From a virus (lineage: Duplodnaviria; Heunggongvirae; Uroviricota; Caudoviricetes): DNA of 6,434 bases. Location of the stretch: IMG/VR virus record IMGVR_UViG_2703719368_000016. One strand, written 5' to 3'. The notes below the pieces were generated by a model. That model was not told where the DNA came from and did not search any database. It saw nothing but the letters and a program-made list of their open reading frames with translations. Position 1 is the first letter of the stretch. Every line of letters begins with the position of its first letter. Made by a program: the position numbers and the translations under genes. Positions 2,412 through 6,337 of this stretch are shown here, one piece after another.

Positions 2412-3374
2412 TCACCCCCTGAATCCCGGCGGTATTTCAGTGTCCGGTTCAGAAATGTGATTCACGCAACGCTGCGCGGGCGAACGCCCCAGGCGGATAA
2501 CCAGTTCATCCCATTTTTCCCGGAGTTTTGCCGGACTCATGATGTTTTTTACCCAGAACGAATCCCGCTGGAGACGCCCAAACATTTCACAAATTTGTCT
2601 GTGAGTTCTGCCATCCAGCATCCGCATTGTCCGCACGTCATTGGCCCATGCAGTCCAGTTGGGTTCTTTCGGTCTCGTGATCTCGCCATCATCGCTGGCC
2701 GCCTGCTCGTAAAGACTCACGATTCGTCCCCAGATCCACTGTGCGCACACCAAATCTTCCTGACTTCCCCACTGGCGTTTTTTCGCACTGAACACAACCG
2801 CGTCAGGGTGTCGGGTTAAAAAATTCTGTTCAGCCGTCTGCGGGTCCGGTTGCGAAGCGTCCGGACAAGAAGATCTTTTATCTGACGGATCAGGTTTTAA
2901 TACTGACGGATCGGGGTCAATCATCGCCCCCCTAATCGGCAGTTTGTTATCAACAGTTGATCCATCAAAATTTGACGGGTCAACCGTTGAGGGGGCAATA
3001 TTTGACGGGTCAACTGTTAACGGGTCATTTTTTGCCGGGCTAATTTTTCTTTTCGGTTTATATGACTCACGCGCCGCCGCAGCAGCTGCTTCGAGTTTTT
3101 CCACATTAAGCCGATAGATATTGCTTACATTACGCCCACCGACCTTACGCTCTTCCTTCGTCAGCCAGCCCTCTTTCGCCAGTTCTGCAATAGCCGATTT
3201 CACTGTGGATTCACTTCTTGCACCGATCTGACGCCGGATAGTTTCAATGGCAGGCCATGACACGCCCTCGTCATTGCTGTAGTCTGCAAGACGGGCCATA
3301 ACCGCCACCCTGGATAAGATCATGCCGGTGAAGGCGCACCCTTCCCAGACAAGACCATGAAGCTTGCTGCTCAT
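2412..3374 (-). CDS. Phage replication initiator: N-terminal winged-HTH DNA-binding domain, Pro/Asp/Ser-rich linker, C-terminal domain
   Basis: The track ORF starts at GTG 3389; I prefer ATG 3374 (MSSKLHGLVW...) with GGGGG just upstream. The N-terminus (LADYSNDEGVSWPAIETIRRQIGARSESTVKSAIAELAKEGWL) matches the HTH pattern of phage replication initiators. The linker encodes TVDPSNIAPSTVDPSNFDGSTVDNK from the DNA iterons. It sits directly upstream of the DnaC-like gene. Confidence 0.75.
   Translation of the reverse strand: MSSKLHGLVWEGCAFTGMILSRVAVMARLADYSNDEGVSWPAIETIRRQIGARSESTVKSAIAELAKEGWLTKEERKVGGRNVSNIYRLNVEKLEAAAAAARESYKPKRKISPAKNDPLTVDPSNIAPSTVDPSNFDGSTVDNKLPIRGAMIDPDPSVLKPDPSDKRSSCPDASQPDPQTAEQNFLTRHPDAVVFSAKKRQWGSQEDLVCAQWIWGRIVSLYEQAASDDGEITRPKEPNWTAWANDVRTMRMLDGRTHRQICEMFGRLQRDSFWVKNIMSPAKLREKWDELVIRLGRSPAQRCVNHISEPDTEIPPGFRG
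2950..3066. repeat. Origin-like iteron cluster with adjacent AT-rich tract, embedded in the initiator gene linker
   Basis: Three near-palindromic sites TCAACnGTT(G/A)A at 2950-2960, 2980-2990 and 3010-3020, exactly 30 bp apart. Two 20-bp direct repeats TTTGACGGGTCAAC(C/T)GTT(G/A)A at 2971-2990 and 3001-3020. An AT-rich stretch follows at 3028-3066 (ttttttgccgggctaatttttcttttcggtttatatg). This parallels lambda ori lying inside gene O. Confidence 0.5.
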
Positions 3375-3396
3375 AAAACCCCCGAACACCGTGCTT

Positions 3397-3822
3397 TTAG
3401 TGCATCACCACAGCATTCCCTGCCGGGCCGCCGCGATTCATCTGGTCATACAAAACAACCGCTGACGCAACAAAATCATCGACATCCTTCACCAGCCGAT
3501 CCCTCCGTTCGACGATCTCACGGTAATATTCAGAACTGTGGCTGCGCATACGGGCCACCAGCAAAGGCGGCATCGCCTTTTCGATCGCCGGTAACAGAGC
3601 CTGCATTTTTTCAACAGCATCAGGGGTGTCTTTATCCAGCCAACGGAAAATTTTCTGGGTATTACGGGCCAGGGCTTCCGGATGGCTGTCGTCATACAGT
3701 TCCGGGAACGTCATTCCCAGCTCGAAATACGCTTTGGTAATTTTCGCAGCCGGTACTTTTTCGCCGTCCGGATGCGCCCAGACATTCATCGCCATGCGGA
3801 TGTGTTCATGCTTGATTTTCAT
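3397..3822 (-). CDS. ydaT: YdaT-like protein (reported CII-like regulator of Rac/CP-933P-type prophages), 141 aa
   Basis: Complete ORF, N-terminus MKIKHEHI..., C-terminus ...VVMH. Its ATG (3822-3820) overlaps the stop of the upstream Cro-like gene in an ATGA arrangement. Family assignment is from memory of YdaT and from gene order, not from a search. Confidence 0.6.
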   Translation of the reverse strand: MKIKHEHIRMAMNVWAHPDGEKVPAAKITKAYFELGMTFPELYDDSHPEALARNTQKIFRWLDKDTPDAVEKMQALLPAIEKAMPPLLVARMRSHSSEYYREIVERRDRLVKDVDDFVASAVVLYDQMNRGGPAGNAVVMH

Positions 3823-4121
3823 GAATCAACTCCATCAGATAAGCATGCACTACAATCACCTTCAGCATGAACTACATGTGTTTGCCCCAAACGAATGCCG
3901 CTCGCATACTCAGGCCAAATAAGCTCCCAATCATGGGGTCGTAGCTCCGCCCTACTTACTTGGCCTTCCGTCGCAGATTCGATCATAAGGGCGCGGGTTG
4001 GAGATATAGCTGTTCGTCCAGACGCCATTTGCGATAAGTAAGATGGCGATACACCAAGTCTGGCCGCGAATTTCTTAGCATCACCAACCCTTAATGATTT
4101 AATAAACTCTTTTAATGTCAT
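3819..4121 (-). CDS. ydaS: Cro-like HTH regulator of the YdaS family, 100 aa
   Basis: ATG at 4121-4119 with GAGGAAGG RBS (revcomp of 4123-4130). HTH segment AKKFAARLGVSPSYLSQMASGRTAISPTRAL followed by an ELRPhDW motif as I recall for YdaS. Divergent from the repressor gene across an operator-rich intergenic region. Confidence 0.65.
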   Translation of the reverse strand: MTLKEFIKSLRVGDAKKFAARLGVSPSYLSQMASGRTAISPTRALMIESATEGQVSRAELRPHDWELIWPEYASGIRLGQTHVVHAEGDCSACLSDGVDS

Positions 4122-4218
4122 ACCTTCCTCGGTTTAGTGTTTTTTTGCGAGTTTAGTGTTTAATAAACCATTAAGTCAAGTATTTGCTTGTTTAGTGATT
4201 ACTAAAGATAATTACCAC
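4122..4218. promoter_or_regulatory. Divergent promoter/operator region (OR-like): PR-like promoter for the cro-like operon, PRM-like promoter for the repressor, repeated operator motifs
   Basis: GTTTAGTG at 4132-4139, 4151-4158 and 4190-4197. Near-palindromes GTTTAATAAAC (4158-4168) and TTTAGTGATTACTAAA (4191-4206). Minus strand: TTGACT (plus 4174-4179), 18-nt spacer, TAAACT (plus 4150-4155). Plus strand: TTGCTT (4184-4189), 17-nt spacer, GATAAT (4207-4212), ending 6 nt before the repressor ATG. Confidence 0.55.
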
Positions 4219-4590
4219 ATGCAAAAAAAAGAAATTCGCCGTTTACGTCTCAAGGAGTGGTTTAAAGATAAAACTCTGCCACCCAAAGAGAAGAGCTACC
4301 TATCTCAACTAATGAGTGGGAGAGCCTCGTTTGGAGAAAAGGCTGCCAGAAGAATAGAGCAAACATACGGGATGCCGGAAGGGTATCTGGATGCGGAATA
4401 CGCAGAACAACCGGGGGGTTCTCCACCACATGCAGGGTTAACGTCTAATCAACTGGAATTATTGCAGATTTTTTCAGCCTTCCCTGAGGATGAGCAACGC
4501 CAGATAATCAGCGAGTTAAAGCAGAAAAAAGAATCAATGGAAGATCTCATAGCGAGATGGATTGCGGCGCAAAAATGCCGCCGCGCCTGA
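4219..4590 (+). CDS. paaR2: CI-like prophage repressor, short form (123 aa) with N-terminal HTH and no S24 peptidase domain; PaaR2-like
   Basis: The track ORF starts at GTG 4156 with no RBS; I prefer ATG 4219 (MQKKEIRRLRLKEWF...), which sits right after a -10-like GATAAT and so implies a leaderless mRNA. HTH: KEKSYLSQLMSGRASFGEKAARRIEQTYGMPEGYLD. The C-terminal part is too short for a LexA-type autocleavage domain. Symbol given from recalled architecture, unverified. Confidence 0.65.
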   Translation: MQKKEIRRLRLKEWFKDKTLPPKEKSYLSQLMSGRASFGEKAARRIEQTYGMPEGYLDAEYAEQPGGSPPHAGLTSNQLELLQIFSAFPEDEQRQIISELKQKKESMEDLIARWIAAQKCRRA

Positions 4591-4610
4591 GTTATAAAAC
4601 CGGAGGAAAC

Positions 4611-4802
4611 ATGAATAGAGCCCTTTCACCAATGGTTTCTGAATTTGAAACCATTGAACAAGAAAACAGTTACAACGAATGGCTGCGTGCGAAAGTAGCA
4701 ACGAGCCTTGCAGATCCGCGCCCAGCAATTCCCCATGACGAAGTTGAGCGCAGAATGGCAGAACGCTTTGCTAAGATGCGCAAGGAACGGAGCAAGCAGT
4801 AA
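4611..4802 (+). CDS. paaA2: Type II antitoxin, 63 aa, partner of the ParE-family toxin; PaaA2-like
   Basis: ATG 4611 with GGAGG RBS at 4602-4606 (the track's 4557 start would overlap the repressor gene and has no RBS). Product MNRALSPMVSEFETIEQENSYNEWLRAKVATSLADPRPAIPHDEVERRMAERFAKMRKERSKQ. Stop TAA 4800-4802 lies one nucleotide before the toxin ATG. Confidence 0.75.
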   Translation: MNRALSPMVSEFETIEQENSYNEWLRAKVATSLADPRPAIPHDEVERRMAERFAKMRKERSKQ

Positions 4803-4803
4803 A

Positions 4804-5082
4804 ATGTTACCCGTGTTATGGCTTGAAAGCGCAGATACCGACCTAGATGATATAACTAGTTATATTGCTCGTTTCGACATAGATGCGGCTGAACGCTTAT
4901 GGCAGCGATTAAGGGGTTGTGTGCTGCCGTTATCCGAACATCCGTATTTATACCCACCAAGCGACAGAGTACCTGGCTTGCGTGAGATTGTAGCCCACCC
5001 TAACTATATAATTCTATACCGCGTAACAACATCAAGCGTTGAAGTAGTAAACGTGATCCACGCAAGACGCCAGTTTCCCTAA
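4804..5082 (+). CDS. parE2: ParE/RelE-superfamily toxin, 92 aa; ParE2-like
   Basis: ATG 4804, in frame with track ORF 4708..5082 but placed immediately after the antitoxin stop. The C-terminus ...HPNYIILYRVTTSSVEVVNVIHARRQFP matches the conserved ParE/RelE motif (Y-R-I/V ... I-x-R-V/I-x-H-x-R-R). The small, tightly coupled antitoxin-then-toxin order is typical of type II TA operons. Confidence 0.8.
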   Translation: MLPVLWLESADTDLDDITSYIARFDIDAAERLWQRLRGCVLPLSEHPYLYPPSDRVPGLREIVAHPNYIILYRVTTSSVEVVNVIHARRQFP

Positions 5083-5100
5083 CTTTCACTACCAATAGAA

Positions 5101-5147
5101 ACATAACAACCGCAACGACTTTATCAAAAGCGTTGTGTTTGTTATGT
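5101..5147 (+). terminator. Long imperfect hairpin just after the toxin stop; possible terminator or insulator between the repressor-TA operon and the downstream promoter
   Basis: ACATAACAACCGCAACG (5101-5117) pairs with CGTTGTGTTTGTTATGT (5131-5147): a 17-position stem with one mismatch and one G-U, 13-nt loop. It is followed by cccgcgGTTTAGTTTTTA, U-rich but not a canonical adjacent U-tract. Confidence 0.35.
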
Positions 5148-5151
5148 CCCG

Positions 5152-5200
5152 CGGTTTAGTTTTTACTTGACTTAAGTTTAATGTTTATTAAACTAAAAAT
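5152..5200 (+). promoter_or_regulatory. Second operator/promoter copy (OL/PL-like, or PdicB-like) directing rightward transcription
   Basis: TTGACT (5167-5172), 16-nt spacer, TAAACT (5189-5194): the same hexamers as the PR-like promoter. Operator-like GTTTAGT at 5154-5160 and GTTTATTAAAC at 5183-5193, the latter the exact reverse complement of GTTTAATAAAC at 4158-4168. The block 5175-5194 matches 4150-4169 at 17 of 20 positions. Confidence 0.45.
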
Positions 5201-5489
5201 ACCAACCCACCCCGCCCCACAGAACGCAGGGAAATACTTCGAGTTACCCGGCAGTGGTCAGGGGTTAAGTAGCCAGCCCGAGGCGTATGAACATGACGGC
5301 AGGGTTCAACTTTAATAACTATGCAGCAGGTTTTTGTTCCGCTACCCCGGCGTTAAGGGGAAACAGAGGGTTTCTCAGTGGGCGAAGTCAAACATCAGAA
5401 TGGAAGGCATCCCGGGATCGGCAAAGAAGCAGCAATGGCGCTTTATATTGACATCAGCGCCATTGCAGGACAGGTAAGAGTTATCAGAG

Positions 5490-5565
5490 NNNNNNNNNNN
5501 NNNNNNNNNNNNNNNNNNNNNNNNNNNNNNNNNNNNNNNNNNNNNNNNNNNNNNNNNNNNNNNNN
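5490..5565. other. Run of 76 N (assembly gap or masked sequence)
   Basis: Literal n characters in the sequence. Any ORF crossing it is unreliable and true spacing is unknown. Confidence 0.99.
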
Positions 5566-5719: not shown

Positions 5720-5938
5720 ATGCAGAAACGAGAACCCGTCATCATCGCGCCAGACTATACCGATGATGAACTTTATGAGTGGATGCACCAGAAAATTAAT
5801 GCAGCGCAGGATCTGAAATGGGCCAATGAAGCCAGGGCTAAGCAGGCTGAAAATCTGTCCGCTCTGGAGCAGGATATCACCAATCTGGAAAAAGCAGCGG
5901 CATTAAGCATTGCCAGAATGATTACATACCCGCGTTAA
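5720..5938 (+). CDS. Small acidic, probably helical protein (72 aa); positionally like the small ORFs (ydfC-like) that precede dicF in Qin-type dicB operons
   Basis: ATG 5720 with AAGGAG RBS at 5708-5713. Product MQKREPVIIAPDYTDDELYEWMHQKINAAQDLKWANEARAKQAENLSALEQDITNLEKAAALSIARMITYPR. It lies between the PL-like promoter and the DicF-like RNA. The ydfC comparison rests on size and position only. Confidence 0.55.
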   Translation: MQKREPVIIAPDYTDDELYEWMHQKINAAQDLKWANEARAKQAENLSALEQDITNLEKAAALSIARMITYPR

Positions 5939-6279: not shown

Positions 6280-6337
6280 TTTCTGGTGACGTTTGGCGGT
6301 ATCAGTTTTACTCCGTGACTGCTCTGCCGCCCTTTTT
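6280..6337 (+). ncRNA. dicF: DicF-like small RNA with intrinsic terminator (the prophage sRNA known to repress ftsZ translation)
   Basis: The sequence TTTCTGGTGACGTTTGGCGGTATCAGTTTTACTCCGTGACTGCTCTGCCGCCCTTTTT matches my recollection of E. coli DicF. GGCGG (6295-6299) pairs with CCGCC (6327-6331), followed by a T5 run at 6333-6337. Context fits: downstream of a repressor-controlled rightward promoter and a small ORF. Ends are approximate. Confidence 0.55.

Follow-up and report, generated by a model that had tools for sequence, protein, structure and literature searches.

The window analyzed here is a stretch of 6,434 bases that carries, on its plus strand, a repressor gene followed by a toxin-antitoxin (TA) pair. 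The first gene, paaR2 (4219–4590; ATG at 4219, TGA at 4588–4590), encodes a CI-like repressor of 123 amino acids; the second, paaA2 (4611–4802; ATG at 4611, TAA at 4800–4802), encodes an antitoxin of 63 amino acids; and the third, parE2 (4804–5082; ATG at 4804, TAA at 5080–5082), encodes a 92-amino-acid toxin of the ParE/RelE superfamily. Almost certainly this is the paaR2-paaA2-parE2 (“RAE2”) operon of E. coli O157:H7, where it forms part of the immunity region of CP-933P, a cryptic lambdoid prophage that is called Sp12 in strain Sakai. Many chromosomes of E. coli O157:H7 match the entire window with 100% identity, and the identity of the locus is secure because it rests on this agreement of sequence. 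In the Sakai record, the site carries the label [quoted passage not shown]. The prophage is defective, with a frameshifted DUF1627 gene and an integrase pseudogene.

The locus has been studied in EDL933 (Jurenas et al., 2021; PMC8630535), and the primers of that study can be placed directly on the window. The FL1/FL2 fragment used for EMSA corresponds exactly to 4122–4218, the PL933P reporter fragment to 5083–5200 (with the R-PL primer ending at 5200) and the PRE933P fragment to 3794–3913. The window does not differ in any respect from the published CP-933P/Sp12 operon (Hallez et al., 2010, as cited in PMC8630535; PMC8630535): proteins and DNA are identical, and the neighboring ydaS, ydaT, OR and OL/PL agree as well. 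The literature thus already covers the locus along with its regulation, structures and rexAB-like position, and for this reason the present identification carries no weight as a discovery; the co-transcription of the three genes, their bracketing by OR and OL, the analogy to rexAB and the idea of addiction are likewise all prior knowledge.

The three genes are tightly packed. The 20-nt gap between paaR2 and paaA2 (GTTATAAAACCGGAGGAAAC, 4591–4610) contains a strong Shine-Dalgarno sequence, GGAGG, at 4602–4606, and paaA2 and parE2 are separated by a single nucleotide at position 4803. The start of parE2 one nucleotide past the paaA2 stop codon suggests that its translation may be coupled to that of paaA2. 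A consensus scan returned neither promoter-like nor terminator-like sites in the two intergenic gaps, and the sole plus-strand promoter-like match within the cassette lies at 4823–4851, inside parE2 and past its start codon. Folding at the paaR2/paaA2 junction is not unusual (z −0.18). The possibility that a promoter or terminator within the cassette separates expression of the TA pair from that of paaR2 was considered and rejected, given the empty gaps and the unstructured junction. Regulator, antitoxin and toxin are encoded in that order, on one strand and at a spacing compatible with one transcript, which is the organization of a three-component paaR-paaA-parE system, and the three genes are described as an operon (PMC8630535, citing Hallez et al., 2010). 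The first-pass annotation, made from the letters of the DNA, had listed three same-strand open reading frames with gaps of 20 nt and 1 nt, which is exact to the base, and its proposal of co-transcription from a PRM-like promoter agrees both with the absence of promoter and terminator sites from the gaps and with the published operon.

The toxin is readily classified. ParE2 is identical over its full length (100%) to chain B of PDB entry 5CW7, and the Pfam profile ParE_toxin (PF05016) matches residues 4–91, a full-length match, with 60.9 bits relative to a curated cut-off of 23. Its structural matches also include Caulobacter ParE1 (3KXE) and further ParE structures, such that both the profile score and the fold represented by 5CW7_B place it in the ParE/RelE superfamily. 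The target of classical ParE toxins is gyrase; a 2016 structural paper on PaaA2-ParE2 reportedly describes ParE2 as apparently unable to interact with GyrA. The antitoxin is equally well defined: residues 2–63 of PaaA2 are identical to PDB entries 3ZBE and 5CW7, in which the construct has a tag in place of the initiator methionine, and the PaaA2 profile (PF21217) scores 70.7 bits relative to a cut-off of 27, which assigns the protein to that family. PaaA2 is devoid of a DNA-binding domain, is degraded by ClpAP and ClpXP, and wraps around and neutralizes ParE2, the overproduction of which induces the SOS response (PMC8630535).

Residues 1–66 of PaaR2 are identical to PDB entries 7NKV and 8C3K, deposited as “Phage repressor protein CI”, and the identity of this N-terminal part to 7NKV establishes PaaR2 as the regulator of the three-component system. 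ParE2, PaaA2 and the N-terminal domain of PaaR2 thus have the sequences of PDB entries, and toxin and antitoxin in addition match the ParE_toxin and PaaA2 families, which bears out the earlier recognition of this cassette as the paaR2-paaA2-parE2 module of an O157:H7 cryptic prophage. No Pfam domain is found in PaaR2 at E ≤ 0.01, and hence no Peptidase_S24; the C-terminal S24 autocleavage domain that characterizes repressors of the lambda CI/LexA type is absent. The protein is also reported to be without the peptidase motif needed for RecA-mediated cleavage (PMC8630535). Its architecture consists of an N-terminal helix-turn-helix and a DicA-like C-terminal domain, the last 70 amino acids sharing 29% identity with DicA of the Qin prophage (E 4e-7). 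This C-terminal domain is the sole part common to PaaR2 and the PaaR1-type repressors, and it probably serves in oligomerization. The possibility that it is a docking domain specific to the TA pair was rejected, as DicA of Qin possesses the domain and has no TA pair downstream.

In functional terms, PaaR2 is the counterpart of CI (PMC8630535); it works like CI, yet stands outside the lambda CI/LexA-type family. Like lambda cI, paaR2 is leaderless: 5′ RACE places the start of PRM933P at the ATG of paaR2, which implies a leaderless mRNA, as confirmed by N-terminal sequencing (MQKKE) and mass spectrometry (PMC8630535). The N-terminus translated from the window, MQKKE, agrees with the published one.

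Immediately upstream of paaR2 is a divergent, OR-like control region of 97 bp (4122–4218), which contains PR933P, PRM933P and three GTTTAGTG-type 14-mer repeats (within 4132–4203). Downstream of parE2, a second block (5152–5200, plus strand) contains OL-like operators with two further repeats of this type (within 5154–5189) and PL933P, which reads away from the cassette toward ydfC, DicF and dicB. The pattern GTTTAGTNNTT has four exact matches in the window, all of them in 4122–4218 or 5152–5200, compared with 0.05 expected from shuffles, a value that gives only a rough significance because the pattern was derived from the same data. A promoter scan also revealed a hexamer pair, TTGACT/TAAACT, that is common to both flanking blocks. 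On the minus strand it constitutes PR933P (TTGACT at 4179–4174 and TAAACT at 4155–4150, with an 18-nt spacer), facing the divergent ydaS; on the plus strand it constitutes PL933P (TTGACT at 5167–5172 and TAAACT at 5189–5194, with a 16-nt spacer). For PRM933P, on the plus strand, the probable hexamers are, by our own reading, TTGCTT at 4184–4189 and GATAAT at 4207–4212, with a 17-nt spacer and the +1 position at A4219. These hexamers were read by eye and have 8 of 12 consensus matches, under the threshold of the scanner; such a weak promoter fits the published finding that activation is needed.

The cassette had been described in the first-pass annotation as bracketed by copies of operator/promoter motifs at 4122–4218 and 5152–5200, in the manner of OR and OL in lambda. 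The repeats and twin hexamers on both flanks uphold this description, and the arrangement has been established experimentally (PMC8630535). Both PaaR2 and YdaS give footprints in the 97-bp region and repress PR933P as well as PRM933P, the latter promoter being stimulated by low PaaR2 (PMC8630535). PL933P, whose −35 and −10 hexamers are identical to those of PR933P, is associated with three OL operators (OL1–3) and is repressed ~100-fold by PaaR2 and by YdaS, and the switch as a whole is bistable (PMC8630535).

The remaining regulators are encoded on the minus strand. The ydaS gene (3819–4121), divergent from paaR2, encodes a Cro-like repressor with matches to Pfam YdaS_toxin (PF15943) and HTH_3; YdaS is the Cro analog and binds the same intergenic region as PaaR2 (PMC8630535). 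Next to it is ydaT (3397–3822; Pfam YdaT_toxin, PF06254), the product of which is the functional equivalent of CII (PMC8630535; PMC9986795) and activates PRE933P (PMC8630535). The YdaT operator OM, an inverted repeat of the form TTGATTN6AATCAA, lies at the ydaS/ydaT junction (3812–3829); this is the one exact match in the window, where 0.04 would be expected, and motif and position are as published (PMC9986795). The other minus-strand neighbors are an O-like helix-turn-helix gene (HTH_36), an IstB/DnaC-like ATPase gene, DUF1627 and DUF977, and the plus strand continues with ydfC, the DicF sRNA and dicB just beyond the window. With divergent repressor and cro-like genes, a second operator set accompanied by a PL-like promoter, and cII-like and replication genes, the region has the features of a lambdoid immunity region.

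Between the parE2 stop codon and OL/PL, on the plus strand, is a 22-nt inverted repeat that is predicted to form a stable hairpin (5101–5147; −24 kcal/mol, z −4.6), comprising an inner 11-bp stem and then UUUGUUAU. This element is probably a tIMM-like terminator that marks the end of the operon directly before OL/PL, a reading supported by its folding energy, by its retention in Escherichia phage Evi (z −3.4) and by the canonical terminators, each with a GC stem and a U-run, that occupy the same position in both of the heteroimmune variants considered below. The hairpin was not detected by a terminator scan and has no clean U-run; a bulge in the stem probably accounts for the miss. A terminator is never discussed in the published study (PMC8630535), where the word itself has no matches, and the hairpin falls inside the PL933P reporter fragment of that study (5083–5200).

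Comparisons with other immunity regions place these features in context. As in lambda cI-rexA-rexB, the PRM/PRE transcript carries a leaderless repressor gene and, behind it, two accessory genes, OR and OL bracket the operon, the cro-like gene is divergent and PL points in the same direction. The distance from OR to OL is ~1.0 kb in the CP-933P locus, and it is ~2.3–2.4 kb in lambda. The equivalence of the TA pair to rexAB is positional only. RexA and RexB have no sequence relationship to PaaA2 and ParE2, which belong by their Pfam matches to the PaaA2 and ParE families; the cargo of lambda is the Rex exclusion system, whereas here it is a type II TA pair; and the S24 domain of CI has no counterpart in PaaR2. 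It has been stated that paaA2-parE2 “replaces rexA and rexB” (PMC9986795), in accordance with the slot to which the first-pass annotation had assigned the pair.

The Qin prophage of E. coli K-12 (dicA-dicC/dicB) shares with CP-933P a homologous repressor C-terminal domain, a divergent cro-like gene and the downstream series ydfC-DicF-dicB, but differs in that there is no TA pair between dicA and the PL-like promoter. At this “empty site”, a PL-like −35 element (TTGACC, read by eye) occurs roughly 60–70 nt past dicA, an arrangement that fits the published insertion hypothesis. Canonical parDE systems (RK2, Caulobacter and Vibrio) resemble the TA pair itself, having a ParE-fold toxin with a gene for a small labile antitoxin just upstream. 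They differ from it in that PaaA2 is without a DNA-binding domain and a separate phage repressor has taken over regulation.

Two heteroimmune variants display the same layout of OR, repressor, TA pair, terminator and OL, each with its own operator repeats on both flanks, ~1.0 kb apart. One of these (locus L004) is paaR1-paaA1-parE1 of CP-933M, in which the three genes follow the same order, again with a ydaS/ydaT pair on one side and a PL-like promoter on the other, and parE is followed by a terminator. It differs in its operators, which are of the ACAATAAAAAACTGT type, and in its proteins: its ParE and PaaA are 67% and 70% identical to ParE2 and PaaA2, and its repressor is ~34% identical to PaaR2 (45/133 in a global alignment), mostly in the C-terminal part. 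The other variant (locus L003), from strain OkiPb01692, combines a repressor that resembles PaaR1 (identity at 85 of 133 residues) and whose N-terminal domain is unrelated to that of PaaR2 with a TA pair that has 93–95% protein identity to PaaA2 and ParE2. Along the DNA, identity of this variant to the window is ~0.4 over OR and the repressor N-terminus and ~0.6 over the repressor C-terminus, reaches 0.92–1.0 at 4620–5019, and is 0.68 at 5020–5069 and ~0.4 beyond. This profile identifies the TA pair as a discrete module, exchanged by recombination among heteroimmune immunity regions, and the junction of the pair with a repressor of unrelated N-terminal domain indicates that repressor and TA pair are separable. 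As these natural recombinants show, the unit that moves between heteroimmune repressors is ~450 bp long. The OkiPb01692 locus is in itself a natural mosaic, with a near-identical pair beside a different repressor, and it illustrates that immunity-region swaps occur in which the TA pair is kept.

Of the complete E. coli genomes surveyed (5,426), 593 contain paaR2 together with OR, and 595 contain 80% or more of the full cassette; paaR2 is therefore never seen without the TA pair in this set. In 573 genomes, which represent several serotypes, identity of the cassette reaches 99% or higher, and relatives of the TA pair are present in 842. Among 72,556 plasmid records, the full cassette appears in a single one, an E. 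coli record of 1.4 Mb, and a distant paaA-parE pair, unaccompanied by paaR, occurs on Pseudomonas plasmids. Phage records yield one instance in 50,697, that of Escherichia phage Evi, a complete coliphage with the full lambdoid set of structural and lysis genes that was isolated from infant feces (PMC10910852). Its cassette is 98.4% identical in DNA, with ParE2 (unannotated) at 100% and PaaR2 and PaaA2 at 98.4% each. The module is thus not confined to cryptic prophages, and the Evi copy would permit tests in a live phage instead of a cryptic prophage.

Published experiments establish how most of the locus operates. PaaR2, a CI-like protein, is made from a leaderless mRNA that starts at its ATG from PRM933P, and binds repeated operators within the 97 bp where the divergent PR933P also resides as well as the second set at PL933P past parE2. 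It represses PR and PL, and low doses of PaaR2 stimulate its own promoter. Competition from the Cro-like YdaS for the same operators generates a bistable switch, and the CII-like YdaT turns on the upstream PRE933P, which also feeds the operon. Occupying the rexA-rexB slot of lambda, paaA2 and parE2 ride on the repressor transcript, which probably ends at the 5101–5147 hairpin, before OL/PL, and the Clp-labile PaaA2 neutralizes the ParE2 toxin.

What the TA pair contributes is suggested by plasmid experiments. The region stabilizes an unstable mini-F plasmid as efficiently as ccdAB does, and cells that lose the locus from an unstable plasmid die by post-segregational killing (PMC8630535). In the chromosome, the TA pair may by extension act as an addiction module, guarding the immunity region against deletion or replacement and thereby preserving the prophage. 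The first-pass annotation had proposed lysogeny-coupled addiction in which the dosage of toxin and antitoxin is tied to the repressor. The addiction component stands, in view of the published killing. Single-cell data reveal that the TA genes are transcribed both in the “lysogenic” (RAE2-on) and in the “lytic” (ydaST-on) state (PMC8630535), so dosage is less tightly linked to the state of the repressor than that annotation implied. Activation of ParE2 was detected in neither state under the conditions tested in those single-cell experiments (PMC8630535).

A different role for the TA pair, that of an anti-phage module, which the first-pass annotation had suggested as an alternative to addiction, is unlikely but deserves consideration. 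Here the pair would act chiefly in exclusion or abortive infection, as a functional, non-homologous replacement of RexAB: infection by another phage would cause either depletion of the labile PaaA2 or silencing of the operon, and the ParE2 thus released would kill the infected lysogen. It would suit such a role that the pair has the slot and the transcript of lambda rexAB (PMC9986795), that PaaA2 is degraded by ClpAP and ClpXP (PMC8630535) and that the cassette is intact in the isolated coliphage Evi, where a gene protecting the lysogen would make sense. Against it, PaaR2, PaaA2 and ParE2 matched no family among the 5,027 defense models of PADLOC 2.0 at E ≤ 0.01; abortive infection, phage defense and superinfection are not mentioned in PMC8630535; a literature search that combined abortive infection with immunity-region ParE TA pairs returned nothing relevant; and ParE2 activation went undetected under the conditions of the published study (PMC8630535). 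The two roles, anti-phage and addiction, are compatible rather than mutually exclusive. In lysogens of the Evi type, one could speculate, with no great confidence, that the TA pair is either a RexAB-like exclusion device against heterologous phages or a lock that kills immunity-region recombinants, and that the loss of PaaR2-driven transcription, combined with Clp degradation of PaaA2, would set when it fires.

On a further reading, PaaR2 would be no true phage repressor but a DNA-binding half that became detached from an ancestral ParD-like antitoxin, and the three genes would form a self-contained tripartite TA system whose location within a prophage is incidental. The absence of a DNA-binding domain from PaaA2 invites this interpretation, a “split antitoxin” being mentioned by the authors themselves (PMC8630535), as do the paaA-parE pairs without paaR on Pseudomonas plasmids. 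It is nonetheless very improbable, and already largely refuted: the C-terminal domain of PaaR2 is common to DicA of Qin, which has no TA pair; PaaR2 represses PR933P and PL933P besides its own promoter (PMC8630535); and in OkiPb01692 the TA pair adjoins a repressor with an unrelated N-terminal domain. Also very improbable is that the cassette is a decaying, functionless remnant, since the frameshifted DUF1627 gene, the integrase pseudogene and the lack of ParE2 activity in steady state (PMC8630535) that would suggest it are outweighed by three intact open reading frames and by the near-identity of the cassette in 573 genomes of several serotypes, and it is already contradicted by published functional assays demonstrating plasmid stabilization and regulated promoters (PMC8630535).

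Beyond the cassette, the PL leader (5196–5380), searched for structured RNA, has no unusual folding (z +0.93) and no Rfam match; short blocks of it are conserved across the variants.

Within the immunity region, a near-identical form of the toxin-antitoxin pair of the paaR2-paaA2-parE2 cassette also occurs behind a different repressor. The locus L003 of E. coli OkiPb01692, a heteroimmune variant, is a natural mosaic (3074-3981) in which a PaaR1-like repressor and its own operators are joined to a paaA2-parE2-type pair, the DNA of which is 92-100% identical to the window over window positions 4620-5019. One of the recombination junctions lies in the gap between paaR and paaA, and the other falls within the last ~60 nt of parE. 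More distant relatives of the pair are present on plasmids of the plant-pathogenic Pseudomonas syringae group (hits H44-H55), where a “stability determinant” and a RelE/ParE toxin are encoded by DNA ~66% identical to window 4625-5064; a paaR-like gene is absent from the aligned part of these plasmids. The intact cassette is carried by Escherichia phage Evi (LR597642.1, 24332-25195; loci L002 and L005), a complete 40-kb lambdoid coliphage. Its ParE2 is 100% identical in amino acid sequence to that of the window, yet the gene is without annotation in the record. Evi PaaR2 lacks an S24 domain.

Between the parE stop codon and the operators and promoter OL/PL is a terminator-like hairpin, which is present in all three immunity variants. 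The hairpins of L003 (3994-4018) and of L004, the CP-933M-type paaR1-paaA1-parE1 locus (4091-4113), are canonical, and that of the window (5101-5147, +) is non-canonical, with a bulged stem and a U-rich tail. The published PL933P reporter fragment includes the window hairpin (PMC8630535); the element is not discussed in that paper.

Downstream of OL/PL, ydfC (5720-5938, +) precedes a DicF sRNA (6281-6332, +), which matches the Rfam model RF00039 over its full length with 76.7 bits (gathering score 48), and dicB starts immediately beyond the end of the window. PL933P is therefore the leading promoter of an operon of the ydfC-DicF-dicB type, the same arrangement as in Qin, a K-12 prophage with DicA. 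Under PaaR2 repression of PL, the cell-division inhibitors would also stay silent.

The PL leader contains short blocks (5201-5226 and 5339-5363, +) that are kept across heteroimmune variants. Downstream of PL, the window shares CCAACCCACCCC with Evi and L003, and CCGCTACCCCRGCGTTAAGGGGAAA with Qin. Taken over its full length, the leader does not fold unusually (z +0.93) and has no match in Rfam. Further along, 76 N (5490-5565) stand in place of 162 bp of real sequence, so that window coordinates beyond 5565 fall 86 short of the genome. This masked stretch falls within a minus-strand 66-aa gene (“ECs_2282 family putative zinc-binding protein”). The gene runs antisense to the transcript from PL; for the equivalent place in Evi, the phage record gives a plus-strand ORF of 118 aa instead.

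Elsewhere, the DUF1627 gene (870-1639, -) is broken by a frameshift into ORFs 870-1538 and 1460-1639, and the CP-933P integrase (L001 15892-16574) is a truncated, frameshifted pseudogene. Both lesions fit the view that CP-933P is defective. At 3812-3829 the window carries the YdaT operator motif TTGATTN6AATCAA exactly as published (PMC9986795). The motif covers the stop codon of ydaS and the start codon of ydaT, these genes overlapping at 3819-3822.
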